NCBI GenBank assembly: GCA_039801885.1
Contig: JBDRVN010000008.1
Span: forward strand, 1 to 44,950
Length of the DNA stretch: 44,950 nucleotides
Direction of reading: 5' to 3'
Source: a candidate division WOR-3 bacterium
Lineage (GTDB): Bacteria; Hydrothermota; Tepidihabitantia; Tepidihabitantales; DTDR01
Shown: in pieces, positions 2,040 to 37,613 of the stretch
How positions within the stretch are numbered: the first letter of the stretch is position 1
Layout: the number at the start of each line of letters is the position of its first letter
Made by a program: the position numbers and the translations under genes
Notes under the pieces: model-generated
The model's database searches: none
Told to the model about the DNA's origin: nothing
Seen by the model: only the letters and a program-made list of their open reading frames with translations

Positions 2040-4741
2040 TGCTTTTTCTTTTAATTCCCTTAATCTTTTCTCAATATGGTAAGAACAAGATTCAGTATCA
2101 GGATTTCTCTTTTTATTATTTAGAAGGAGAGAAGTTTTTATTATACTACCAAGAAGGAAGTGAAGATTTAGCCAATTTTTCTTATGAGGTTTGTGAAAAG
2201 ACCATTGAAGAATACGAAGATATTTTTAATTTCCGCTTAAGAAGAAAGATTCCGATAATTATTTATAATTCACCCGGTCAATTTCAGCAGACTAATATTA
2301 TTTTGGATTTACTTGAAGAAGGGATTTTGGGATTTGCGGAAGTTTTTAAAAACCGGGTTGTTTTGCCTTTTACCGGTTCCTATTATGATTTTCTATATAC
2401 TTTAAGGCACGAGATTGCCCATATCTTGGAATACGAGTATTATTGGAAAAGGGGCTTATCAACTCTTTTATCTTTAACACCGGAATTTACTTTGCCCACT
2501 TGGTTTATGGAAGGACTTTCCGAATATTTAAGCAATAGAAGAAATTCCCTTCATCCGATAATTATTGCCGATTTATTAATCAACGATAAATCTATTACCC
2601 TATCTTCTTTGCCGGAAGGAAGTTATCTCAATTATGTTTTAGGCGAACATTTTTTTATCTTTTTAGAAGATAGATATTCTAATAAGAAGGCATACGAGTT
2701 TTTAAGGGAGGTAAAGAAAAGAAAAGGAATTGATGGCGCTTGTAAGAAAAGTTTTGGCAAAAGTTTTTCTTCCTTAGAGAAGGATTTTTTAGATTATCTA
2801 AAAGAGAGATATTATCCCTTAATATATAAAAAAAATAATTTTACTAAGAAGGCAAGAATAATCCTTGACCACCAAAAAGAGAAAAGAAGATATAATATTT
2901 TTCCTGTCCCAATTTCCGAAACAGAATTTCTTTATCTTTCTTATAAAGATGACCAGGTATCTATTTTTTCTTATTCTTTTCTTAAAGAGAAATCTAAACT
3001 TCTCTTAAAAGGAGTCTCTTTTTTCGGGACTGGTGAGATAAGTATCTTAAAACCGGCTCTCACTTATTGCCCAAAAGAAAATGCTATTTATTATATCAAA
3101 AGATTAAGAGGAAAAATCTATCTTTGTAAATATTCTCTAAAAACGAAAAAAGAAGAAAGATATCATCTGCCTTTAGAAGATGCCTATCATTTAAATATTT
3201 CACCAGATAATAAAAAGCTTGTTCTTTGCGGAATAAAAAATGGGAAAAGTAATTTGTATCTCTTTCTTTTTGAGAAAAAAGAACTTTTCCCCTTGACCAG
3301 TGATATCTTTGAAGAAAAAGATCCCTATTTTTTCAATAACGAGACCTTACTTTTCATAAGCGACCGAGAGAAATTAGGAAATTACGGAATCTATTTATAC
3401 TCATTAAATGACAAAATAATCAAAAAACTTTACGAACCAAAAGGAATTGAACTATCTTCCCTAATTCCTATCTCTTTTAGTTCTTTGGATACCTTGCTTT
3501 TTGTTTTAGATTATGAATTAGTTATCTATTCATTAAAAGAGAATAAGATTTTATATAAAAGTGATTTTCTTGGTGCCTGTCAGACGCCGATTGTTTATAA
3601 AGATAAAATTTTCTTTTCTTATTATCATAATCAAGGATATTCAATATCCCAGATTGATAATCTTTCTTCTTTAAGAAAAGAGCAGGAATTTAAACTAAAA
3701 GAAAAAGAAGAAAAGGAATTTTCTTATCCGGAAACCAGTTTAATAAAAGAGAATAGAAAATATAATTTTTCCCTTTCCGCAGATTATGCCACTGGTCAGG
3801 CATTCTTCTCTTCGGGGTTAGGATTTACCGGTAATTTCTTAATATCTCTATCCGACCTTCTTGGTAATCACCGGTTTTTAATCTTAACGAACCTTTATGG
3901 ACTTATTGATTTTTCCAATTTTTACTTCTCTTATGCCTATCTAAAAAGAAGGGAAGATTATTATTTTACCTTATTTCAATATGTTGATTTTTATTATTGG
4001 CGCGGCGATACTTTTTTAACGGTTACCCAAAAAGGATTCTTTCCAGTTGTTTCCTATCCTTTTACCAAATTTTTAAGAAGCGAATTTGGCTTATTACTTT
4101 ATTTAAGAGATTTTAGATTTTACTATCAGAAAGAAGAGATATACGAGATTGAAAAGAAAAGGATTAGTGAGAAATTTTTATATAACTATTTTTCTTTGGT
4201 TTATGACAATGCCCTTTTTTCCGATTTTGGACCGATTAAAGGACAGAGGTTTTTGTTAGAGCCTTATTTTACTCTTCCGCCCAGTGATTCAATCTTTCAG
4301 AGTTTATATTTAGAAACAAGAGATTATTTTAATATCTATGATAACTCTTATATCCTTGCCTTTCTTTTTGGTGGAATCGCAAGTTTTGGTGGAAATAGAG
4401 AAAGGTTTTATCCGGATGGCAACTATGTCCGCGGTTATGAGCTTATTTATCCGGAAGACGAGTCTACCAATTTTTATCTTCTATTAGGTAAATTAGAATT
4501 TCGTGCTCCCTTTGTGGAGATTTTAAAATTGGGCTTTCCTTTGCCAATAACAATAAAAAATATCCGAGGAAATACCTTTTTAGATTTTGGCACCAACTTT
4601 AAAAAATCTATTTGGGGAGCTGGTTTTGGCTTAAGGTTTTTTGTTGGCTATTTTCCTTTTATGATTGACTTTGCCTATCCCCTATCTAAAAAAGAAGAGC
4701 GGTACTGGCAAATTACTTTCGGTATCAAAGAAGACTGGTAG
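2039..4741 (+). CDS. Outer-membrane protein: peptidase MA-like (HExxH) + TolB/PD40 propeller + Omp85-like barrel
   Basis: QYGKNKIQY start, HEIAH and WFMEGLSEY, SPDNKKLV repeat, 'SDLLGNHR', YVRGY, KLEFRAP, GAGFGLRF...DFAYP, terminal W. Confidence 0.8.
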   Translation: MLFLLIPLIFSQYGKNKIQYQDFSFYYLEGEKFLLYYQEGSEDLANFSYEVCEKTIEEYEDIFNFRLRRKIPIIIYNSPGQFQQTNIILDLLEEGILGFAEVFKNRVVLPFTGSYYDFLYTLRHEIAHILEYEYYWKRGLSTLLSLTPEFTLPTWFMEGLSEYLSNRRNSLHPIIIADLLINDKSITLSSLPEGSYLNYVLGEHFFIFLEDRYSNKKAYEFLREVKKRKGIDGACKKSFGKSFSSLEKDFLDYLKERYYPLIYKKNNFTKKARIILDHQKEKRRYNIFPVPISETEFLYLSYKDDQVSIFSYSFLKEKSKLLLKGVSFFGTGEISILKPALTYCPKENAIYYIKRLRGKIYLCKYSLKTKKEERYHLPLEDAYHLNISPDNKKLVLCGIKNGKSNLYLFLFEKKELFPLTSDIFEEKDPYFFNNETLLFISDREKLGNYGIYLYSLNDKIIKKLYEPKGIELSSLIPISFSSLDTLLFVLDYELVIYSLKENKILYKSDFLGACQTPIVYKDKIFFSYYHNQGYSISQIDNLSSLRKEQEFKLKEKEEKEFSYPETSLIKENRKYNFSLSADYATGQAFFSSGLGFTGNFLISLSDLLGNHRFLILTNLYGLIDFSNFYFSYAYLKRREDYYFTLFQYVDFYYWRGDTFLTVTQKGFFPVVSYPFTKFLRSEFGLLLYLRDFRFYYQKEEIYEIEKKRISEKFLYNYFSLVYDNALFSDFGPIKGQRFLLEPYFTLPPSDSIFQSLYLETRDYFNIYDNSYILAFLFGGIASFGGNRERFYPDGNYVRGYELIYPEDESTNFYLLLGKLEFRAPFVEILKLGFPLPITIKNIRGNTFLDFGTNFKKSIWGAGFGLRFFVGYFPFMIDFAYPLSKKEERYWQITFGIKEDW

Positions 4742-26742: not shown

Positions 26743-27681
26743 TTATTTAAAAATCCTTGTTCCCACTTTTCCTTTTAATGCCTTGCCAATATTTTCTGGT
26801 GATGTAATAATCACCTCTTCTCCACCATTCTTTAAAAAATTGATTGCTGCCTCAATCTTTGGTCCCATACTTCCTTTTGGAAAATGACCTTCCTTATAAT
26901 ACTTTATAATTTCAGAAAGAGTAACCTTTCTTAATGGTTTTCTATCTTTCTTACCATAATTTAAATAGACATAAGGAACCGCTGTTGAGATAATAAATAA
27001 AGAGGCATTTAACTCCTTGGCAAGTAATGAACCTGTTAAATCCTTATCAATCACACAGGCAATCCCAAAATAATCACCATTCTTCTCAATCACACCAATT
27101 CCACCTCCGCCACCAGCAATCACAATCTTACCTTCCTCTAACAATTTTCTAATTGCAGAAATCTCTATAATCCTTTTTGGTTTTGGCGAAGGAACGACCC
27201 TTCTAAATCCTCGATAGGCATCTTCGACAAAAAACCAACCATATTTTCTTTTTAATACTTCCATCTCTTCCCTTGTATAAAATGGTCCAACAGGTTTTGA
27301 CGGCTTTTTAAAATCCTCATCTTTCTCATCAACCAGTACCCTGGTAATTATTGTGGCAACTTCTTTATCAATCTTATTTCTCTTTAATACATTAGTCATT
27401 GCCAAACTTATCATATAACCAATCTGACCTTGCGTCATCGCATTTCCACAATCTAACGGTTCTTCTGGTAAGAAATTTCTTGATAAATGATTCTTCAAAA
27501 GTAAATAACCAACTTGCGGTCCATTGCCATGGGTAATCAAAAGTTCATAACCCCTTTCTATAACTGAAACTAAATTCTCACAAGTCTCATAAACCGTATT
27601 TAACTGGTCATCAAAAGAAATCCCACCACCCTCCTTGATTAAAGAATTACCACCTATCGCACAAACACATATTCTTTTCAT
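26743..27681 (-). CDS. arcC: Carbamate kinase
   Basis: AIGGNSL, THGNGPQVG, KPVGPFY, RRVVPSP, GGGGI, VIDKD, GSMGPKIEAA. Confidence 0.96.
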   Translation of the reverse strand: MKRICVCAIGGNSLIKEGGGISFDDQLNTVYETCENLVSVIERGYELLITHGNGPQVGYLLLKNHLSRNFLPEEPLDCGNAMTQGQIGYMISLAMTNVLKRNKIDKEVATIITRVLVDEKDEDFKKPSKPVGPFYTREEMEVLKRKYGWFFVEDAYRGFRRVVPSPKPKRIIEISAIRKLLEEGKIVIAGGGGGIGVIEKNGDYFGIACVIDKDLTGSLLAKELNASLFIISTAVPYVYLNYGKKDRKPLRKVTLSEIIKYYKEGHFPKGSMGPKIEAAINFLKNGGEEVIITSPENIGKALKGKVGTRIFK

Positions 27682-27686
27682 TATTA

Positions 27687-27715
27687 ATTTTACTTAACTA
27701 TTAATAAAAATTCAA
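27687..27715 (-). promoter_or_regulatory. sigma70 promoter TTGAAT-17-TAAAAT, leaderless arcC
   Basis: ATG 5 nt after the -10; no SD. Confidence 0.65.
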
Positions 27716-27786
27716 TACTTTTTAAAAATATTCTTACAAATTATTTTAAAGATTATCAATAAAGGTATATCCAAGGTAGTATAGTA

Positions 27787-27857
27787 GATAGCCCCCTATC
27801 CGAAAGGGTAAATATATTTAAGTTATGTAATTCCAATAACTTATACAAAATTTTTGT
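27787..27857. repeat. Cluster of short palindromes at the edge of the accessory patch
   Basis: GATAG-cccc-CTATC 27787-27800; TAAGTTAT-9-ATAACTTA 27819-27843; ACAAAA-t-TTTTGT 27845-27857. Confidence 0.55.
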
Positions 27858-27859
27858 GA

Positions 27860-27886
27860 AATAAAAAGTTTCCATAGAGGAAACTT
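27860..27886 (-). terminator. Intrinsic terminator of the LVIVD unit
   Basis: AAGTTTCC-5-GGAAACTT (27866-27886) followed by a T-rich run on the minus strand. Confidence 0.6.
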
Positions 27887-27911
27887 CAAATCTTTGTTTT
27901 TCTTTTAATAA

Positions 27912-28145
27912 TTAGTTGTCCACCCATAGGATATTCATAATACCCGTATCATTTGGTGCTCCAATAAATATCTCTACCCAGACAAAGGAATCACAATTAG
28001 CAACAAAGGTCTGACCAACCCAATTATCAGGTTCTCTTCGTGTCCAAGCATTACAATTTTTAAAAGGCTCAATATCGTAAACCCGAGTAGCGCTTAAAAT
28101 AATGCCAAACATTAAAAATATCGTAATGATTATTTTTCTAACCAT
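27912..28145 (-). pseudogene. Probably truncated N-terminus of a secreted protein
   Basis: Strong SD (AGGAGG), signal peptide, then only about 58 aa of beta-strand-like sequence ending abruptly; another frame briefly continues with plausible YEYPMGGQLI. Confidence 0.55.
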
Positions 28146-28148
28146 TTT

Positions 28149-30419
28149 TTACCTCCTTTTTACTTTTATAACTTTTACTAACTTTGTTTTTGTTTTTTCC
28201 TTTATTTGAAATAAAAGTACACCTTTGGGTAAACCATCAATGTTTATTTCATATTCCTCACCTCCCTTGTTAAAGTTTTTATTTGAAAAAATAAATTTTT
28301 TTAATTCTTGCCCCATGGAGTTAAAAATAGTAAGAGATACTAAATTAGGAAATTTTTTTTTAGAAATTAAAATAAATTTTTTACCTACCGGATTTGAAGA
28401 AATAATAAAATCTTTTATCCCTTCTCTTCTTTTGCTTTCTTCCATATTTGAAGATTCAAATTTTAAAATACATACTCCACCGGAATAACAGGCAGCATAA
28501 ATATACTCGTCTTTCCAAAATAACCTTCTAATGTCATCAGGAGTGGAATAATAACCTACCTCTATCGGATTAATTGGGTCGGAAATATCAAATACTTGCA
28601 ACCCAAACCGTCCGCCAACATAAGCTATGTTCTCTTTAATCTCAATATCCTTTGGAAATGTCCGAATAGGAACGGAAACGATTTGATAGGGATTATACGG
28701 ATTAGCAATACTCCAAATATTTAACGAATCATAGCTGTGAACAAAATAAGCAAAAGTATCTTTTATTGCTAAACCTCCGCCCCTTGGTTGAGTAAAAGTA
28801 TTTATCCTTATTGGATTAGCAGGATTAGAAATATCAATAATTGTCCAGCCCGAACCATAAACATAAGCATAATTTCCCCAAATCACTACTTCTAAGCTTC
28901 TTTCTAATGAATTACAACTTCCCACTAAATATGGCCGGCGAGGATTGGCAATGTTAAAGATTTCAAATTGGTTATCATTAGCAATGTATAAAAGGTTGCC
29001 TCTTATTATCATATCTTTAGCAGAACCAAAACTTGTTACCATTGCCGCTCTCCGCGGATTAGATAGGTCGGAAACATCAACAGAGTGAAGGGTTGATTCT
29101 CCTCTACAACCCTCCATCGGAACATAAGCAAAGGAATCACGAGCAGTAGCAGTCATCATAAATGGTGGTTCACCAACTCTATCATAAGAACCTAATTCAA
29201 AAGGAGAAGAAGGATTACTCACATCTACTATCTTTAAACCCGCCATACCCTCCGCTATATAGGCTTTATCATTATCAATAACTATGTCGTGAGACCCACA
29301 AGCAGCAAATAAAGTTGTTTCAACCCTCGGATTCACTGGGTCATTTATATTTATCACTGCTAAACCCTCCCAATCATTTGCCGTATAGGCATAACTAAAA
29401 GGATTTAAGACACAGACATCATAACCCCAACCCGAGGTTACAACCCTACTAATTAATGTGGGCTCTTGTGGCGTAGAAACATCAACTATATCAAAAACTG
29501 ATAAATTCCAAGAATCCCGCACAACATAAACAAAAAAACTCTTTTTGTACAACCTCCTTGCCAATGCCGTGGTATTGTAACCAATTTCTCGCGGTGTAAG
29601 CGGATTACTAATATCAATTACCCTTAAACCAGCAACACCAGCCGCCACATAAACATAACTCCCTTCCGACCAGACATCTAACGCCCGCCAACCACCTATT
29701 GAAGCAACCTCCCTTATATTCCTTGGGTCAGAAATATCAACCACCCTCAATCCTCCTAACTGATTGGCCACATAAGCATAATTACCTAAAACATCTACTC
29801 CCCAGGTATAATCAGAAAACTCTAAACTATCCATCTGATAAGGATTTCTTGGGTCAGCACAATTCACCACCCTTAATAACGAATCAAAGCCAACAATATA
29901 TAAAAAACTATCTTTTATTGCTAAATCTCGATGATAACTCCTCATTGGCAACATTCCTATCCTTTCTGGTTGATAAGGATTTCGTAAATAATAAATTTCT
30001 AAAGCATAAGAAAGAATATATAAATACTCTCCTTTCTTCTGAACTCTCATACAAGGACCTAAACAATCAATTTTACTTATCATTGAAGGAAACCAGGGAT
30101 TGCTCAATTTTAACACCCTTATCCCACTACCTGAACCTAAAAATAAAAGACTGTCAACATCTATCCTATCGGATGGAGTTATACTAAAACTCTCGCCAAA
30201 AGGCCAGCGACCAACACAGCGAACATTCCAAGAATCAGGTATTAACGACTTCTCTATCCTCTCTTTTTCTATCAACATCTCCCGAAACTCAATAGGTGCC
30301 CTATCTAAAGAATCAATAAAATGATGATACTCTCTAAAAATTACTAAATCCAAATCCCCTGCCAAAACTATGGAATTAAAAAATAAAATAACTAAGGTTA
30401 AAAACTTCTTATAACCCAT
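28149..30419 (-). CDS. Secreted LVIVD-repeat beta-propeller protein with C-terminal sorting domain
   Basis: Many 'YAYVA...GLRVVDISDP.NP' repeats; C-terminal ISSNPV...IFNSMGQ...LPKGV...KVIK. Confidence 0.9.
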   Translation of the reverse strand: MGYKKFLTLVILFFNSIVLAGDLDLVIFREYHHFIDSLDRAPIEFREMLIEKERIEKSLIPDSWNVRCVGRWPFGESFSITPSDRIDVDSLLFLGSGSGIRVLKLSNPWFPSMISKIDCLGPCMRVQKKGEYLYILSYALEIYYLRNPYQPERIGMLPMRSYHRDLAIKDSFLYIVGFDSLLRVVNCADPRNPYQMDSLEFSDYTWGVDVLGNYAYVANQLGGLRVVDISDPRNIREVASIGGWRALDVWSEGSYVYVAAGVAGLRVIDISNPLTPREIGYNTTALARRLYKKSFFVYVVRDSWNLSVFDIVDVSTPQEPTLISRVVTSGWGYDVCVLNPFSYAYTANDWEGLAVININDPVNPRVETTLFAACGSHDIVIDNDKAYIAEGMAGLKIVDVSNPSSPFELGSYDRVGEPPFMMTATARDSFAYVPMEGCRGESTLHSVDVSDLSNPRRAAMVTSFGSAKDMIIRGNLLYIANDNQFEIFNIANPRRPYLVGSCNSLERSLEVVIWGNYAYVYGSGWTIIDISNPANPIRINTFTQPRGGGLAIKDTFAYFVHSYDSLNIWSIANPYNPYQIVSVPIRTFPKDIEIKENIAYVGGRFGLQVFDISDPINPIEVGYYSTPDDIRRLFWKDEYIYAACYSGGVCILKFESSNMEESKRREGIKDFIISSNPVGKKFILISKKKFPNLVSLTIFNSMGQELKKFIFSNKNFNKGGEEYEINIDGLPKGVLLFQIKEKTKTKLVKVIKVKRR

Positions 30420-30591
30420 TTTAAAATATTTTAACCTCCGATATCTTTAAGTCAATATTTCTATTTGCGGCAAGGTCAAAATCAGAAAATAAAATATACT
30501 GCATTATCTCTATATCTAAGCTTACTCTCTCACTTTATGAATCTTACCAAATAAATCTCTATTTAAGTAGATGGATATTTAATCTCTTGCC

Positions 30592-30627
30592 TTCTTAATT
30601 AATATCTCCCAATTATAATCTACTTCT
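30592..30627. repeat. 36-bp direct repeat, copy 1 (displaced porB 3' end)
   Basis: TTCTTAATTAATATCTCCCAATTATAATCTACTTCT identical to 32379-32414; minus strand reads EVDYNWEILIKKARD-stop (stop 30581-30579). Confidence 0.95.
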
Positions 30628-30675
30628 TTTTAAAAGAGTAATGAAAAAAGAAAGATAGGAAGATAAATTTAAATG

Positions 30676-30703
30676 TTGATTTATTTCAAAAAAATATTAT
30701 AAT
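30676..30703 (+). promoter_or_regulatory. sigma70 promoter TTGATT-16-TATAAT for the SIR2 gene
   Basis: Inside the cassette, 34 nt upstream of ATG 30738. Confidence 0.55.
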
Positions 30704-30737
30704 TATAACAAAAATGAGTAAAAGAGAGTTTTAATAA

Positions 30738-32264
30738 ATGCCAAAAGATATTAGAGAATTTATCGAGAAAATCAGATATGCCTCGCCAGAAATTTTAGAA
30801 GGTACAATTGATGAACTCCTTTTCCGTATAAGCCATCGTGATATTTTTATTTTTGAACCCCTTGAAGAAATAAAAGAGCTTATTTATAGTATCCGTGAAG
30901 CTACTGAAAAAGGTTTTATCTCAAAAAAATATCTAGCAAGAGTGATTAAGGGAATAATCAATTTTATCCGTGCATTTCCTTTATCTTCGGTAGAACGTAA
31001 TTTTCTTTCTGGATTATTAAGGAGAGAGTTAATTCTGGCTATAGAACCAGAAAAAGGGAAAATGTTAAAGAAAAAATCCAAGAAAGAAGAAGTAGAAAAA
31101 ATCGCCCAATCCTTAGAAAAAGTTGAACTAAATGAGCAAGATACCATACTTTTCTTCTTAGGTGCCGGCGCCTCAAAACCTTCTCCTTCAAATATTCCAA
31201 CAATAAATGAATTACTAACAACACTATGGGAAAAATCTAATCGATTAGAGACAAAACCCCTTGAAAAACTTCGACAATGGTGTAGGGAAAACAATATAGA
31301 AAACATTGAAGAACTGCTCACCGCAGTTACAATTTCAAATTTCATTATCAAGAATTCGAAAGTTCACGGATTTCTTAATTCAGTACTATATCCCGAATGG
31401 AGCCAGGAAATAAAAAATATCTCTATTAGAAATATTGATTCCATTTTACTTCTGGATAATATGTTAAATACCTTCTTTTCTCTTCTTGTCGGAACAATGC
31501 TGGAAGCCAAACCAAATGAGATTCATAATAGTATTGCGGAATATGCTAAAAATATAAAACCGGGATTTGTAAACATTCTTACTACCAACTACGATATTTG
31601 TATTGACCAGGCTCTGGATAATTATCATGTGAAATATAATTATATCCTTAACGCCTCCGAAGATAAGAATAGCCTTAATCTTGTGAAAATACATGGCTCA
31701 ATTAATTGGTTTTACTGTGAGACTTGTCAAAATATTTTTCTTCCCTCAATTGAAACCATAACCGATGCGATAAAAAAAGAGATACCCTATTCGGTTTTAG
31801 GAATGTGTCAACATTGTAACGCACCCGCCAAACAATTTATTATCCCGCCGATTACCTATAAATATTTAACACATCCTTTAATTATTCAAATATGGGATTA
31901 TGGTAGAAAAATTTTTGAACAAGCCAAAATTATTGTTATTGTGGGCTATTCGTTTTCGGTTGCTGAGGACTACATTTCTAAAATGTTGGCAAAAGCTATA
32001 AACAAAGATCCCCAAAAAAATATTATTATCATTGATATTAATGAAGAGGCAATCGATCGATGTAAATCTTGTATTAAATTTTATGTAGAATCTTTTGATG
32101 ATTCGAAACACTTCTTCCCCTTATTAGGGGATGGCGTAGAATTTTTGCCTAAGGTAGTGGATATACTAAAAAAGAAAACTAAGTCCATCAAATTAACAAA
32201 TCAGAAGGTACGAAAGAATATTGCTTATTCAAAAAAGAAAAACCAGAAAGGAAAATCTGATTAG
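30738..32264 (+). CDS. SIR2-family (NADase-like) protein with helical N-terminal extension and Zn ribbon
   Basis: FFLGAGAS...IPT, TTNYD, KIHGSINW, CETC...CQHC, IIPP...K, VGYSF. Confidence 0.88.
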   Translation: MPKDIREFIEKIRYASPEILEGTIDELLFRISHRDIFIFEPLEEIKELIYSIREATEKGFISKKYLARVIKGIINFIRAFPLSSVERNFLSGLLRRELILAIEPEKGKMLKKKSKKEEVEKIAQSLEKVELNEQDTILFFLGAGASKPSPSNIPTINELLTTLWEKSNRLETKPLEKLRQWCRENNIENIEELLTAVTISNFIIKNSKVHGFLNSVLYPEWSQEIKNISIRNIDSILLLDNMLNTFFSLLVGTMLEAKPNEIHNSIAEYAKNIKPGFVNILTTNYDICIDQALDNYHVKYNYILNASEDKNSLNLVKIHGSINWFYCETCQNIFLPSIETITDAIKKEIPYSVLGMCQHCNAPAKQFIIPPITYKYLTHPLIIQIWDYGRKIFEQAKIIVIVGYSFSVAEDYISKMLAKAINKDPQKNIIIIDINEEAIDRCKSCIKFYVESFDDSKHFFPLLGDGVEFLPKVVDILKKKTKSIKLTNQKVRKNIAYSKKKNQKGKSD

Positions 32265-32359
32265 TCGCAAAAAAATAATGCAGCACCAAGTAATCTAAAT
32301 CTTTAAAAAATATTAAATAACCTTATTAATAAAAAGGAGAAATTAAAAACTACTGCCGA

Positions 32360-33247
32360 TTAATCATATAGTTTTACTTTCTTAATTAATATCTCCCAAT
32401 TATAATCTACTTCTCTTTGGATTATTTCTATCTCTTTTTCAGTTAGATGGGAGAAACGACCTTGGAGTTTTAAATATTCTTTAACAGGTATATTTTTGGG
32501 TTGGTAATTTATCACATATTTTACACCATCAAAAACCTCATATAACGGAAAGACTTTACAATCAACTGCTAATTGGGAGATTGTTATCATCAATTCTGGT
32601 GCCATTCGCCAGCCTGTTGGGCAAGGTGCAAAAATATGGATAAAGGCTGTTCCTTTAACTTCTTTTGCCTTTTTAAATTTTATTATTAAATCATCAGGAA
32701 AACCAATAGAAGCAGTTGCCACATAAGGTATTCGATGGGCGGCAATAATTTCGCTAATATTTTTCTTTCTCTCTTTCTTGAAGTTTTCTCTTGGAGTCGT
32801 TGTTGTCCAAGCACCATAAGGAGTTGCGGAAGAACGTTGGATTCCGGTATTCATATAGGCTTCATTATCATAACAAGCATATATAATTTTATCATTCCTC
32901 TCACAGGCAGCCGATAATGCCTGAATACCGATATCTAATGTTCCACCATCGCCAGCAAACGCCAATACTTCAATATCAGTTTTTCCTTTTATATCTAAAG
33001 ATGCTCTTATACCACTGGCAACAACTGCTGCGGTCTCAAAGGCGGTATGATAAACTGGAACCTTTAAGGAATGTAAAGGAAATGGACCATCAATAATTGA
33101 CCAGCAACAGGCAGGAATAACAACGATTGTATTTTTACCAAGTGCCTTTAATGCCAAGCGCATCGCATAAGCACCGCCACAACCCGGACAAGCCAAATGT
33201 CCTTGGTCCATATATTCTTCACTATTATTAGCAAACTTCCATCTCAT
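32360..33247 (-). CDS. porB: 2-oxoacid:ferredoxin oxidoreductase beta subunit (TPP-binding)
   Basis: GHLACPGCG, GDGGT.DIG, YDNEAYMNTGIQRS, PCPTGW, QGRF.HL. Confidence 0.92.
   Translation of the reverse strand: MRWKFANNSEEYMDQGHLACPGCGGAYAMRLALKALGKNTIVVIPACCWSIIDGPFPLHSLKVPVYHTAFETAAVVASGIRASLDIKGKTDIEVLAFAGDGGTLDIGIQALSAACERNDKIIYACYDNEAYMNTGIQRSSATPYGAWTTTTPRENFKKERKKNISEIIAAHRIPYVATASIGFPDDLIIKFKKAKEVKGTAFIHIFAPCPTGWRMAPELMITISQLAVDCKVFPLYEVFDGVKYVINYQPKNIPVKEYLKLQGRFSHLTEKEIEIIQREVDYNWEILIKKVKLYD
32379..32414. repeat. 36-bp direct repeat, copy 2 (within porB)
   Basis: Identical to 30592-30627. Confidence 0.95.
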
Positions 33248-34422
33248 ATTCTTAACCCCCGAAAATAAACCATTTCTTGTGGATAATCTGCCTTATAGGT
33301 AAAATCAATTATCTCCCGAATATCTTCCGGAATAACATCTCTACCACCTAAGCCAATTACAAAACCAAATATCATCGGTCTTCTTATCTCGTTATATAAA
33401 ATTGATTTTATCTCCTGACAAAAAATACCTGAATGACCAAAACTAATATTTCTATCAATTACCGCTACTTTCTCTGCTTTTGTCAAAATCTCTTTAATTT
33501 GGGAAAAAGGCGAAGGTCTAAAAAGTCTAATTTTCAAAAGTCCAACCCTTTTTCCTTTGCTTCTCTCTTCATCAATCACTTGTCGGGCAGTGCCAGTGAT
33601 GGTTCCGGAAGTTACTAAAATAAGTTTCGCATCTTCACAATGATAGGCTTCAACCAAACCATACTTTCTACCAAATATTTGATAAAAATCATTATCAACT
33701 TCTTCGCTAACTTTTAATGCCTTTCTATGTGCCTCCTCAATTTTATATCTAATTTCATAATAATGGTCAGGAGAAGTTAAACCACCAAAGGCTCTTGGAT
33801 CATTTATATCTAAAAAATATTTTGGTTTATAAGGTGGCAAAAACTTATTCACATCATCTTGATAAGGAATATCTACCGGCTCAGAAGTATGGGATAAAAC
33901 GAAAGCATCTAAAACAAGCATAACCGGAATCAAACAAGTTTCAGCAATCTTAAATGCCTGAATTGTCGTATCTAATACCTCTTGGTTTGATTCGCAATAA
34001 AATTGAACAAAACCAACATCCCTTTGGGAAAGGGAATCATTTTGGTCTGTCCAAACGGACCAGCCGGGTCCCATTGCCCGATTCACATTTGCTAAAACAA
34101 TTGGTAACCTTCCACCGACTGCCCAATGAAGCATTTCATGCATTAGCGCCAAACCATGGGCAGAAGTGGCAGTGAAGGTTCGGCAACCGGCTGCGGCAGC
34201 TCCCACACAGGCAGCCATTGCTGAATGCTCACTTTCCACTTTGATAAATTTTGCTTTCAAAAGACCGCTGGCACAAAACTCCGATAATAGCTCAACAATC
34301 TGAGTTTGCGGAGTTATTGGATAGGCAGCAATAACCTCTGCTTTTGATAATAATACACCATAAGAAACAGCGTGGTTACCAGTAACTACTTTCTTTTTAC
34401 CATAAATCAAACTTTCTTTCAT
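33244..34422 (-). CDS. porA: 2-oxoacid:ferredoxin oxidoreductase alpha subunit
   Basis: AAYPITPQT, VESEHSAM, TATSAHGL.LMHE, NRA, GLGGRD. Confidence 0.93.
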   Translation of the reverse strand: MKESLIYGKKKVVTGNHAVSYGVLLSKAEVIAAYPITPQTQIVELLSEFCASGLLKAKFIKVESEHSAMAACVGAAAAGCRTFTATSAHGLALMHEMLHWAVGGRLPIVLANVNRAMGPGWSVWTDQNDSLSQRDVGFVQFYCESNQEVLDTTIQAFKIAETCLIPVMLVLDAFVLSHTSEPVDIPYQDDVNKFLPPYKPKYFLDINDPRAFGGLTSPDHYYEIRYKIEEAHRKALKVSEEVDNDFYQIFGRKYGLVEAYHCEDAKLILVTSGTITGTARQVIDEERSKGKRVGLLKIRLFRPSPFSQIKEILTKAEKVAVIDRNISFGHSGIFCQEIKSILYNEIRRPMIFGFVIGLGGRDVIPEDIREIIDFTYKADYPQEMVYFRGLRI

Positions 34423-36098
34423 TTTGCCTCCTCAAAGAACATACTTATTACATTTCTTGGACACTCATGGGCACAAACACCACAACCTTTACAATAATCG
34501 TACAAAATCTCATACTCACTATCTTTCTTTAATATTGCTAAATCAGGACAGAAGACATAACAGTTATCACAATTATTACAAACACCACAAGAAAAACATC
34601 TGCTTGCTTCATAACTAATATCCCGATCACTCAATGTTGTTACAATCTCTTTAAAGTTTCTTTTCCTCTTATTTATCGGTAATTTATCTTCTTCTATTCT
34701 TTTCTGTTTTTCAAAATAATAGATATTAAGATTTTCGTAATTAACAAGATTAAAAATCTCTTTTTTTGGTATCTCGTAATTTTTTAAGTAATGTAAGATA
34801 AAATAGGCAGTTTTTCGACCATAAGCAATTGCCTCGACAACAGTTTTGGGACCAGTAACACAGTCGCCACCGGCAAAAACCTTTTCCATATTTGTCTTGC
34901 CATATTCATCAGCAAGAATAGTTCTTTTACCAATTATCTCTTTGGGCAAGATATTTAATTCAACTCTCTCACCAATCGCCTTAATTATTGTATCACTTTT
35001 AATAATAAAATTGGAATTTTTTATTGGTATCGGCTTTCTCCTTCCGGTCTCATCAACCTCTTCACCTAACTTCATTCTAACACATTCCAAACCTTTCACT
35101 TTTCCTTTTTTATCTCTTACCACTTTCACTGGTGCGGTCAAGAAGATGATTTCAACTCCCTCTTTTATTGCTTCTTCTACTTCCTCTTTTACTGCCGGCA
35201 TCTCTTCCTTTGTCCGACGATAGATAATTTTCACCTTTGCTCCTTTTCTTAACGCCACGCGCGCACAATCAATTGCCGTATTGCCACCACCAATTACCAA
35301 AACATTTTTGCCAAAATACTTAACTTTCTTTTTGAGATTTATTGTCTTTAAAAAATCTAACCCCATTAAAACACCGTTTGCTTCTTCATTAGGAATCCCT
35401 AATTCCTGCTCAATTTGAGCACCGATTGATAAGAAAATCGCATCATATTCTTTTGTTAAATCAGACAGAGAAAAATCTTTTCCCAGTTCTTTATTAAAAA
35501 TAAATTTTGCTCCCCTTTTTATAAGTTTCTCAACCTCTCTTTTTACAATCTCTTTAGGTAAACGATAACCGGGAATACCATAAAAAAGAATTCCCCCGGC
35601 ATATTCCTCTTTTTCAAAAATTGTTACATTTATTCCATTTAAAAGAAGAAAATAGGCACAACTAAGGCCACTTGGACCGCCACCAATTACCGCTACTTTC
35701 TTATCATTCGTTAATTTTTCAATCTTTCTTTTTGGCTCAACAAAATTTAATCCATAATCACCGAGGAATCTTTCAATTGTATGGATAGCAATACTTTCAT
35801 CAAAATTTCTCCGATTACAACCAGTTTCGCAGGGATGATAACAGACCCGGCCGGTAATTGAAGGAAAAGGATTTTTCTCCAAAATCGTCAGATAAGCTTC
35901 TTCCCATTTACCTTTTAAAGCAAAAGAAATATATTTTTGGATATCCTCATTAGCCGGACAATAATAATTACAAGGTGGCGTCTTAGGAAAATATTTAGGA
36001 TAGAAAGTTCGCCAAGTTCCGGTTTTATTAATTAAAGTTTTTTCCCAACTTATTGCCAATTCTGGATAATCTTTAACTTTCAAATCTAACTTTTTCAT
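34419..36098 (-). CDS. OFOR delta subunit interrupted by a GltD/NfnB-like FAD/NAD(P)-dependent oxidoreductase
   Basis: N-terminal KTGTWR..P (delta), PPC...CP, GRVCYHPCE..C, GGGPSG, GGGNTAIDCAR, YRR, C-terminal CFSCG.C..C..C..FCPD...YDYCKGCG.CA.ECP. Confidence 0.88.
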   Translation of the reverse strand: MKKLDLKVKDYPELAISWEKTLINKTGTWRTFYPKYFPKTPPCNYYCPANEDIQKYISFALKGKWEEAYLTILEKNPFPSITGRVCYHPCETGCNRRNFDESIAIHTIERFLGDYGLNFVEPKRKIEKLTNDKKVAVIGGGPSGLSCAYFLLLNGINVTIFEKEEYAGGILFYGIPGYRLPKEIVKREVEKLIKRGAKFIFNKELGKDFSLSDLTKEYDAIFLSIGAQIEQELGIPNEEANGVLMGLDFLKTINLKKKVKYFGKNVLVIGGGNTAIDCARVALRKGAKVKIIYRRTKEEMPAVKEEVEEAIKEGVEIIFLTAPVKVVRDKKGKVKGLECVRMKLGEEVDETGRRKPIPIKNSNFIIKSDTIIKAIGERVELNILPKEIIGKRTILADEYGKTNMEKVFAGGDCVTGPKTVVEAIAYGRKTAYFILHYLKNYEIPKKEIFNLVNYENLNIYYFEKQKRIEEDKLPINKRKRNFKEIVTTLSDRDISYEASRCFSCGVCNNCDNCYVFCPDLAILKKDSEYEILYDYCKGCGVCAHECPRNVISMFFEEAK

Positions 36099-36624
36099 AG
36101 GCCTCCTGACAGGCTAAAATATTTTCTTCCTGCTTTACTTCTACATATTCTTTAATATTTTCTAAAACACTATCTAAACTGACAAAAGGATGAATTCTAA
36201 TAAAAGCACCAAGCATTGCCGTATTAACAATTGGAGCTGTCTTTGTTCCCAAACGATATTTTAAAGCAATCTGGGTAGCATCACAAACTGCCACTTTATA
36301 ATTAGGAAAAGAATAAAAAGAAATTTCTTTATTAGTATTAATTAAAATTGTGCCATTAGATTTTAAACCATCAGTAATATTTACTTGGTTTAATAAAACC
36401 GGATCCAAAATAATAATATGGTCAGGATAATAAACTTTATAACGAATAACTATTGGTTTTTTATCAAACCGCAAGAATGCCTGAACCGGTGCTCCTCTTC
36501 TTTCGACACCAAATTCCGGAAAAGTCTGACAATAATAACCTTCTTTAAAAAGGGCGGATGCCAAAATTTCCGAAGCAATAACTGCTCCTTGTCCGCCCCG
36601 GCCGTGAAATCGAATTTCAACCAT
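36073..36624 (-). CDS. 2-oxoacid:ferredoxin oxidoreductase gamma subunit
   Basis: EIRFHGRGGQG, FGVERRGAPV, NTAMLGA. Confidence 0.93.
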   Translation of the reverse strand: MVEIRFHGRGGQGAVIASEILASALFKEGYYCQTFPEFGVERRGAPVQAFLRFDKKPIVIRYKVYYPDHIIILDPVLLNQVNITDGLKSNGTILINTNKEISFYSFPNYKVAVCDATQIALKYRLGTKTAPIVNTAMLGAFIRIHPFVSLDSVLENIKEYVEVKQEENILACQEAYEKVRFES

Positions 36625-36632
36625 TCAACCTC

Positions 36633-37613
36633 CTACCATTTATAAACCATTCCTGCCCAGGTAAAACCAGTGCCAAAGGCACTCATTAAAATCAAATCAC
36701 CATCTTTTATCTTTTCAGTGCGATAGGCTTCGTCCAAAGCGACCGGTATCGTGGCTGCTGACATATTACCATATTTGTGTAAAACAATAAAAGTTTTCTC
36801 ATCCGGGATTTTTGTTCTTTCATTGGTTGCTTTTATTATTCTCATATTTGCTTGATGGGGAATGAAAAGTTTAATATCTTCAATGGAAATATTGGCATCT
36901 TTCAATGCCTTTTCTGCTGCCTTACCCATCCAAATTACCGCATGTTTAAAAACTTCTCTTCCTTTCATATGGACATAATGAAGTTTCTCTTTAACTGTTT
37001 TTTCTGACGCCGGCATCCTCGTGCCACCCGCTGGTTGATAGAGAAGTTCAGCTAAAGAACCATCAGCACCCCAATTGGCTGATAAAATACCAGAATCGCC
37101 TTTGCCTTCGACAACAACACAGGCACCGGCGCCGTCACCAAATAAAACACAGGTTGCCCGATCTTCCCAATTGACAACTTTTGACATCACTTCGCCGCCA
37201 CAAACCAAAATTTTTTTAGCCATTTTTGATTCAATCAAAGTACCAGCAAGTAAAAAGGCATATAAAAAGCCCGAACAGCCAGCACTCACATCAAAAGCAC
37301 CTTGTCCTTTAGTTTTCAATTTTTTCTGAAGCCAACAAGCAGTGGAAGGATAAACAGTATCCGGTGTTGAGGTAGCAACAATAATCACATCTATTTCTTC
37401 AGGCCTCATTTGTGCCATTTCTAACGCCCTTATTGATGCCTCGTAACACAAATCAGAAGTCGCCTGGTCATCCCGAACAATCCGCCTCTCTTTTATTCCG
37501 GTCCTTTCCGTAATCCATTCATCAGTGGTATCAACCATTTTTTCTAAATCAAAATTATTAATAATTTTTTCTGGTAGATAGGAACCAACTCCAATGATTT
37601 TTATTCTAATCAT
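36633..37613 (-). CDS. fabH: Beta-ketoacyl-ACP synthase III
   Basis: DEWITERTGI.ERR, AGCSGF, LFGDGAGA, PHQAN.RII, GNMSAA.IP, FG.GFTW. Confidence 0.96.
   Translation of the reverse strand: MIRIKIIGVGSYLPEKIINNFDLEKMVDTTDEWITERTGIKERRIVRDDQATSDLCYEASIRALEMAQMRPEEIDVIIVATSTPDTVYPSTACWLQKKLKTKGQGAFDVSAGCSGFLYAFLLAGTLIESKMAKKILVCGGEVMSKVVNWEDRATCVLFGDGAGACVVVEGKGDSGILSANWGADGSLAELLYQPAGGTRMPASEKTVKEKLHYVHMKGREVFKHAVIWMGKAAEKALKDANISIEDIKLFIPHQANMRIIKATNERTKIPDEKTFIVLHKYGNMSAATIPVALDEAYRTEKIKDGDLILMSAFGTGFTWAGMVYKW

Follow-up and report, generated by a model that had tools for sequence, protein, structure and literature searches.

How does a lone accessory gene come to lie inside the coding sequence of a core metabolic enzyme, between two copies of the end of that enzyme's gene? 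This question is raised by a locus in a candidate division WOR-3 bacterium (assembly GCA_039801885.1, hereafter G000; 1.56 Mb in 70 contigs, 91% complete, GC content 0.309), on the contig JBDRVN010000008.1 (C8), whose 44,950 nt form the whole stretch that we analyzed and that we call the window. Here a gene of the SIR2 family is flanked by a 36-nt direct repeat at the 3' end of the gene for the beta subunit of a 2-oxoacid:ferredoxin oxidoreductase (OFOR). Lone defence genes often occur in genomes with no visible vehicle, and this locus offers a clean and datable example: in a small genome with XerC and XerD as its only site-specific recombinases, single-base resolution is available for the donor DNA, for the target and for the empty allele. 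The answer that we consider probable is a real, lineage-specific insertion of 1,751 bp of foreign DNA carrying SIR2, with a 36-base target duplication, belonging to the class of insertions with long target duplication (ILTD) and joined by host repair.

The duplicated gene end and the empty site

The insertion target, OFOR beta, occupies positions 32360 to 33247 of the minus strand and encodes 295 amino acids (Pfam TPP_enzyme_C, 2.6e-20), with an intact C-terminus that reads EVDYNWEILIKKVKLYD, that is, KKVKLYD before the stop codon. The 36 nt at 32379 to 32414, inside this gene, are identical at 36 of 36 positions to those at 30592 to 30627, and both copies, read on the minus strand, give (R/K)EVDYNWEILIKK. 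A repeat search widens the identity to 45 nt at 93% (30587-30631 versus 32374-32418, spacing 1787), and 6 of the 9 bases beside the 36-mer match as well (3/4 on one side, 3/5 on the other). Even when up to three mismatches are allowed, the 36-mer has exactly two matches in the whole genome, and its reversed control has none. The copy that lies outside the gene is part of an orphan OFOR beta 3' fragment (30579 to 30629, minus strand), a 16-codon open frame with a stop codon directly upstream that reads K-EVDYNWEILIKKARD and then stops; its tail, KKARD, follows the KKA.. pattern of the orthologues.

The DNA between the two copies (30628 to 32378, 1,751 nt) entered three codons ahead of the OFOR beta stop. 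Its GC content of 0.304 gives no donor signal when compared with that of the genome. Shadow frames aside, the insert contains a single open reading frame (ORF) of at least 60 amino acids, namely the SIR2 gene at 30738 to 32264 of the plus strand, and its non-coding remainder measures 110 + 95 nt. At its other end the insert supplies the new end of OFOR beta (32360 to 32378, minus strand), consisting of the third base of a lysine codon, then VKLYD and the stop. These readings bear out a preliminary description of this DNA, which had reported identical repeats within the OFOR beta coding sequence, the two different tails, a single SIR2 gene on the opposite strand and a host C-terminus altered from ARD to VKLYD. 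The same description had credited SIR2 with its own promoter. A promoter-like site, TTGATT-16-TATAAT, does lie at 30676 to 30703 of the plus strand, 35 nt upstream of the SIR2 start, and agrees with the consensus at 10 of 12 positions, which makes such a promoter plausible; consensus matches in the region are no more frequent than in shuffled sequences (13 versus 10.0 +/- 3.3).

To establish the direction of the event, we relied on the relatives of G000. The OFOR beta gene was found in all 41 genomes searched, and the orthologues of four congeners share 90-96% protein identity with it. In the blastn comparison with the congener G005, window positions 37000 to 32372 align as far as the gene end, and the next 193 nt of G005 (L023, 4991-5183) align to window positions 30631 to 30452, that is, to the orphan copy and its flank, at 78% identity. 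In G003, too, the gene end is followed directly by the homologue of the orphan copy, and the genes of G002 and G018 align as far as the duplicated stretch. Synteny resumes in all four genomes at a carbamate-kinase-like gene, and all four are without the insert; no relative examined aligned to window positions 30632 to 32371. The multiple alignment agrees, as the G005 sequence that comes after KK (…GCAAAAGGTTAAATATCCATCTATTTAAATAG…) follows the continuation of the orphan and not that of the intact copy. Tails of orthologous proteins read KKAKG (G005), KKTRI (G003), KKAKG and KKSSL. The sequence after KK is freely variable, and the VKLYD tail occurs in none of 19 orthologues. Of 66 genomes of the order, two, G000 itself and G062 (41% identity), contain the SIR2 protein.

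Because the gene ends and tails of G005 and G003 match the orphan, and SIR2 is present in just two of the 66 genomes, the orphan copy with its flank is evidently the ancestral end of OFOR beta. The ancestral downstream flank can be placed by the G005 alignment at 30452 to 30591 of the minus strand, where the old gene end contributes its final 13 nt (G GCA AGA GAT TAA). The empty allele that had been predicted from this geometry is thus confirmed by the congeners' sequences, and the 1,751-bp insert was acquired in this lineage. The working gene now reads through the duplicated 36 nt into the insert, with ARD and its stop swapped for VKLYD and a new stop. VKLYD has the look of a tail acquired by chance, at a place where the protein can vary freely, and a core metabolic enzyme can evidently tolerate rewritten last residues.

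The 36-nt segment itself differs at 4, 5, 8, 9, 8 and 8 positions in six relatives, and the two window copies are identical to each other. Both copies carry this lineage's own allele, which suggests that the duplicated sequence came from the recipient itself or from a conspecific donor.

Scars of the same kind and the search for a recombinase

We scanned G000 for exact repeats of at least 24 nt lying 0.2-30 kb apart and obtained 47 pairs, most of them within repetitive surface-protein genes. Among the ten pairs that were inspected, two, on contigs C46 and C54, have the same geometry as the OFOR beta locus and empty sites in congeners. At the first (G000:C46:1344-3736, L073), a 50-nt exact duplication surrounds an insert of 2,293 nt: the final 50 nt of a 131-aa ORF, with its stop codon, recur 2,343 nt downstream, 1 nt from the guaA stop. 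The insert carries ORFs of 227, 165 and 80 aa without known function, and G005 and G004 join both flanks via one copy. At the second (G000:C54:700-3183, L072), a stretch of about 160 nt at the 3' end of ychF is duplicated (142/162 identical). Here the cargo is a gene for a 683-aa metallohydrolase of the CehA/McbA type with a sorting tail of the type IX secretion system (T9SS), and the second copy lies behind it, before uvrB. G005, G003 and G002 lack this insert, and the two copies share three derived bases against all three of these relatives.

The duplicated sequences at the three loci are mutually unrelated, with lengths of 36, 50 and about 160 nt, and no end motif is common to the three inserts. 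Since unrelated duplications of differing length flank other inserts in the same genome, the duplication process is general and not site-specific. The lineage allele shared by both copies at OFOR beta and the derived bases shared at ychF argue against an element that imported a foreign mimic of the gene end. Furthermore, the cargo on C46 and C54 is not of the defence type, and hence a nuclease encoded by the cargo cannot be the cause here. Taken together, the three loci argue for host DNA repair, and against the cargo, as the maker of the scar.

We infer that the duplication arose through break repair or template switching by the host. The likeliest chemistry would be a break whose staggered ends were long, or a template switch during replication: host repair would join a foreign fragment to the broken ends, and fill-in would then duplicate the overhang. 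Such a route would involve no dedicated integrase or transposase, the length duplicated would depend on the site, and both copies would derive from the sequence of the recipient. Later spread of the cassette among strains would probably proceed via ordinary homologous recombination of the flanks. As to the joining pathway, Cas1 and Ku gave no matches in the 91%-complete genome, DprA is present and ComEC was not found, which provides no lead.

Three further observations concern repeats in this genome. A 98-nt repeat on contig C4 was considered as a similar scar and dropped, as the break points of the relatives lie off the repeat. On contig C18 (25196-28321, L075), a 120-nt exact repeat, or about 170 nt with one indel, surrounds the gene for a 748-aa P-type ATPase and comprises what by its look is a whole tRNA gene together with the first ten codons of the next ORF; the alignments of relatives stop at the first copy, and about 0.8 kb of contig remain past the second. 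Within the C46 insert, the parts at about 2643-2932 and 3278-3612 have matches of 70-85% on many other contigs of the genus, so that this insert apparently contains a dispersed repeat or the leader of a gene family.

The preliminary description had read the repeats differently, as attachment (att) sites of a site-specific element that uses OFOR beta as its landing site and carries a replacement gene end. This would make the locus a stand-alone relative of the streptococcal cis-mobilizable elements (CIMEs), in which the 36-mer would be the att core and the integrase would have been lost by deletion or would act in trans, supplied by a helper element. The arrangement does resemble attL and attR in a gene 3' end, and cargo-only CIMEs have been described for the 3' ends of rpmG, rpsI and fda (PMC7563491). 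The 6 of 9 matching bases beside the 36-mer, as well as the lower divergence of the cassette between strains compared with its flanks (see below), would also agree with it.

The search for a recombinase gave little to sustain this proposal. No member of a mobility family was found among the 34 window ORFs scanned, in line with the earlier remark that no integrase lies nearby, and the repeat is not a multi-copy sequence. In the whole genome, PF00589 has two matches, XerD (360.5 bits, cut-off 329.6) and XerC (346.3 bits, cut-off 335.15), and resolvase-type serine recombinases have none in the 91% that is assembled. PF00589 is matched in 65 of 66 genomes of the order, in nearly all of them exactly twice; among the five congeners, the number of tyrosine recombinases is two in four and zero in the 68%-complete G001. 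No tyrosine recombinase lies near the orthologous OFOR beta gene anywhere in the order. The order is thus unusually poor in integrases, mostly with a pair similar to XerC and XerD, and it gains genes nonetheless; extra tyrosine recombinases occur in few genomes (nine in G060, four each in G021, G061 and G064, and three in G063).

Traces of a dedicated site were equally scarce. We searched downstream of OFOR beta in 19 relatives (over 135-1,497 nt in 13 of them and 3.2-7.3 kb in six) and within this reach found neither a second copy of the gene's own tail nor any other occupant; the same script recovers both window copies. Other cargo between the same repeats, which the preliminary description had proposed to look for in relatives, is therefore absent from these 19 loci as far as the scan extends. 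The 36-mer has no exact match in viral contigs. We also dropped an element that depends on the host Xer recombinases (integrative mobile element exploiting Xer, IMEX), as the 36-mer does not resemble dif: its 10-11 mismatches over 28 positions are the mode of random 80-nt windows, judged by a proteobacterial consensus from which the dif of this phylum may differ. The best sites for this consensus over the genome have five mismatches and none is convincing, which makes the dif comparison a weak test. A transposon, a casposon or other Cas1-type integration is not supported, given 15/40 terminal matches, duplications of 36, 50 and about 160 nt and no Cas1 in the assembled genome. More generally, the ends of the three inserts have no terminal inverted repeats (15-21 of 40 matches). 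The geometry rules out an integron cassette, since insertion at attI or attC gives no 36-bp direct duplication, and no separate integron integrase was found.

With the recombinase, dif, viral, tail-copy and VKLYD searches all negative, nothing marks the OFOR beta end as a recurrent landing site or VKLYD as a purpose-made replacement. The 110 + 95 nt of non-coding insert leave no room for remnants, and the new tail is like that of no orthologue. The target varies fast (4-9 differences in 36 nt), yet both copies carry the lineage's allele, and the other duplications in the genome are unrelated to this one. We therefore regard a site-specific cassette as quite unlikely, and the att sites and imported gene end of the preliminary description are not supported.

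Several points nevertheless weigh against insertion by host repair. The geometry alone would be the same for duplication in situ and for a circle that brought a short copy of the gene end. Thirty-six bp falls within the range of att identities, and the 30-bp threshold for ILTD is a rule of thumb. The 6 of 9 matching bases beside the 36-mer could be residual homology of an attP-like mimic and not chance agreement in AT-rich DNA. Finally, in a genome that is 91% complete and divided into 70 contigs, an integrase or helper could be unassembled.

The comparison with known classes favors ILTD, which was reportedly first described by Nobusato et al. in 2000. A survey of restriction-modification (R-M) genes by Furuta, Abe and Kobayashi (2010) defines such insertions by a duplication longer than 30 bp, an insert shorter than 20 kb and the absence of mobile genes, and gives among its examples 46-bp repeats overlapping gene 3' ends in Haemophilus influenzae (PMC2853133). 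Where that paper turns to mechanism, it leaves the matter open and suggests double-strand breakage (PMC2853133). Our locus has a single copy at the empty site, a duplication of 36 nt, an insert of 1,751 nt and no mobility gene; the survey also called for R and M homologues, instead of which there is one SIR2 gene, and membership is thus by geometry only. The likeness lies in a small defence-type cassette without mobility gene, between unique repeats of more than 30 bp that overlap a gene 3' end and vary in length from site to site. The differences are that the cargo is a lone SIR2 gene rather than an R-M pair, that the insertion is intragenic and alters the last residues of the host protein, and that scars in G000 also flank non-defence cargo.

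CIMEs of streptococci are described as decayed derivatives of integrative and conjugative elements or integrative and mobilizable elements, which keep their att sites, measure 1.2-13 kb and reside at the 3' ends of fda, rpsI and rpmG (PMC7563491). The CIMEs portrayed there resemble our locus in that they carry cargo but no integrase and are bounded by direct repeats at a housekeeping gene's 3' end. They also share att sites with integrase-bearing relatives, whereas no such relative, integrase or remnant was found for the OFOR beta insert. Our literature search returned no paper that combines 'long target duplication' with SIR2. The locus is probably an intragenic ILTD case with a new cargo in a class already known: it would extend ILTD from R-M genes to a SIR2 gene and reveals no new type of mobile element.

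Junctions and strain variation in public metagenomes

Since G000 is itself assembled from a metagenome, with about 6-7x coverage in the best run, the locus might result from the threading into the contig of a free circle, or of another strain's sequence that shares the 36 nt. We examined eight public runs from three studies, all of them hot-spring metagenomes, in the form of k=31 contigs. These contigs break at the 36-mer, and the k=31 graph is identical for the integrated form and for an empty site accompanied by a circle. Accordingly, the contigs of runs X1 and X2 stop exactly 30 nt into the 36-mer from each side, as expected of a two-copy repeat. In run X3, however, a single contig (record 19, 31858-32482, four differences) runs from the cassette through the 36-mer into the gene, and a contig of run X5, from another study (record 31, 32328-32539, 13 differences), also bridges the right junction, which therefore exists in independent data. 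No listed public contig piece spans the left junction, and this counts against the locus as we read it. Depth is equal between cassette and flanks in X1 (7.1 versus 5.8-6.2) and in X2 (19.6 versus 18.7-21.7), and a SIR2 protein 99% identical to ours is recorded on one 42.5-kb contig. An assembly artefact is unlikely, and we assign it a very small probability indeed.

Run X2 also provides a second strain for comparison. Its cassette (30598-32408) differs from the window at 8 of 1,811 nt, against 23 of 1,388 and 28 of 1,143 nt in the two flanks (Fisher p 7e-4 and 2e-6). In these strains, then, the cassette goes back to a more recent common ancestor than the DNA around it. Recent horizontal spread agrees with this, and a mobile unit would account for it too, a point that must be held against a single insertion by host repair; homologous exchange of the whole locus would likewise explain the low divergence.

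The same data bear on a Campbell-type entry, in which a small circle carrying SIR2 and a short copy of the gene end, excised from a conspecific or close donor when the repeats at its own flanks recombined, was joined to OFOR beta by host homologous recombination through the 36-nt identity. An uninterrupted identity of 36 nt is about the minimum for RecA-type recombination, and the X2 divergence is in keeping with such an entry. A metagenome contig of 2,229 nt (L054) is of further interest in this context, as it contains essentially only a SIR2 homologue, 34% identical to ours, and has identical ends of 99 nt. A circle could account for such ends, and so could a loop that joins long direct repeats; an assembly-graph loop also yields identical contig ends. 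A 'virus-like cycle' has moreover been proposed for R-M cassettes, a hypothetical round of insertion, amplification and release for which the authors themselves state that there is no evidence of release (PMC2853133). Yet the scenario needs an earlier event that made the first duplication, and no donor with a VKLYD tail is at hand (0/19). The closest of the other SIR2 homologues reach 67% identity at most, and the donor search, which covered SIR2 relatives at 11 genome and 28 metagenome loci (27-47% identity in the best segment), found none beside an OFOR gene end. We consider an entry of this kind unlikely.

A bolder version holds that the SIR2 cassette is a self-perpetuating mobile unit without recombinase, released as a circle of 1,787 bp when the host recombines its long target duplications, and re-entering related chromosomes via the short gene-end copy, with the NAD-depleting SIR2 enzyme favoring retention of the unit; for R-M cassettes such a course has been proposed and never demonstrated. 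Under this reading, the low divergence of the cassette and the SIR2-only contig with identical ends would be traces of the cycle. We consider this very unlikely. For the OFOR beta locus, we continue to favor one foreign insertion joined by host repair.

The SIR2 cargo and the neighboring genes

The gene carried by the insert encodes 508 amino acids and matches the Pfam families SIR2_2 (7.3e-8) and SIR2 (1.7e-5), both above their cut-offs. The protein begins with a helical N-domain (residues 1-127), continues with a SIR2 Rossmann core that includes a Cys4 zinc ribbon (135-465) and ends in a long helix. The AlphaFold2 model (mean predicted local distance difference test score, pLDDT, 88.8) has the same three parts, with six helices in the N-domain. 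In an alignment of 50 sequences, the motifs GAGAS (G142, A143, S146), TTNYD (N284, D286) and H319-G-S and the four cysteines C327, C330, C357 and C360 are invariant. We read the protein as a catalytically intact, active NAD-using enzyme.

Whether it serves in defence or as a deacylase is less clear-cut. In a Foldseek search, the SIR2 protein of the SIR2-HerA antiphage complex comes first (E 3e-11) and classical sirtuins follow closely; the best PADLOC model is the Argonaute-associated SIR2 (Aga_SIR2, 2.2e-18), of which no partner gene is present. The SIR2 of SIR2-HerA (Nezha) and the archaeal and bacterial sirtuins (PDB 8wld, 8w9l, 1ici, 1ma3) have the SIR2 Rossmann fold in common with ours (Foldseek E 3e-11 to 1e-8, TM score on the target 0.58-0.69), and the N/D/H catalytic motif and the Cys4 zinc ribbon right after the catalytic histidine are found in sirtuins as well. 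In contrast, identity to these proteins is 14-18%, and the six-helix N-domain and the long C-terminal helix are particular to the window protein; matches by sequence to solved structures are marginal (KomC, 0.027). Unlike SIR2-HerA, Thoeris ThsA, SPARSA and DSR, the locus has no HerA, ThsB/SLOG or pAgo/APAZ partner and the protein no long DSR body, with SIR2 and SIR2_2 as its only Pfam domains.

The family to which it belongs is stand-alone, with members of about 450-530 amino acids and no conserved neighbor at 38 homologous loci. Its nearer homologues, at 51-67% identity, come from metagenomes and from one metagenome-assembled genome of the Promethearchaeota, in which the NCBI annotation reads deacylase. 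Because of this patchy distribution across domains, and because it arrived as a lone accessory gene, we lean towards an NAD-consuming defence effector rather than a housekeeping or regulatory deacylase. All curated NCBIfam deacylase models score far below their cut-offs (NF001753, 41.6 versus 243 bits; NF040867, 31.5 versus 320 bits). Two facts pull the other way: the NCBI label of a 59%-identical homologue is deacylase, and the fold is equally close to true sirtuin deacylases (TM 0.6-0.69) and to defence SIR2s.

Repeats were also seen around other members of the family. At one locus (L065), a repeat of about 180 nt of a gene 3' end (about 90% identical) surrounds 4.8 kb that include a split SIR2 homologue. 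At two others (L066 and L067), the available stretches end ahead of the second repeat copy.

The label porB, used so far for the target gene, is a fair one: its product scores 403.9 bits with the VOR-beta model NF008818 and 366.3 bits with the PorB model NF008819 (cut-off 405 for both), and it would be of the POR/VOR type, with a ketoisovalerate-type enzyme also possible. The remainder of the operon, assigned by profile matches, extends over 33244 to 36624 of the minus strand. It comprises the alpha subunit (33244-34422), an NAD(P)-binding flavoprotein with a delta-type ferredoxin end (34419-36098) and the gamma subunit (36073-36624). In the second of these, an OFOR delta-type ferredoxin domain (PorD-type match, residues 506-556) is fused to the C-terminus of a GltD-like flavoprotein (NF009410, 591 bits, above the cut-off), an arrangement that suggests a pyridine-nucleotide-linked 2-oxoacid oxidoreductase. 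There are no tRNA genes in the window, no Rfam matches at permissive thresholds in 27000-34000 and no terminator-like sites in 30350-32500.

On the other side of the insert, a 756-aa LVIVD-repeat protein with a T9SS-type tail (28149-30419) is encoded by a variable gene. In run X2, 321 other letters take the place of 28695-30341, and the locus measures about 320 nt in G005 against about 2.3 kb in the window. This variability is independent of the SIR2 insert, which X2 carries at equal depth.

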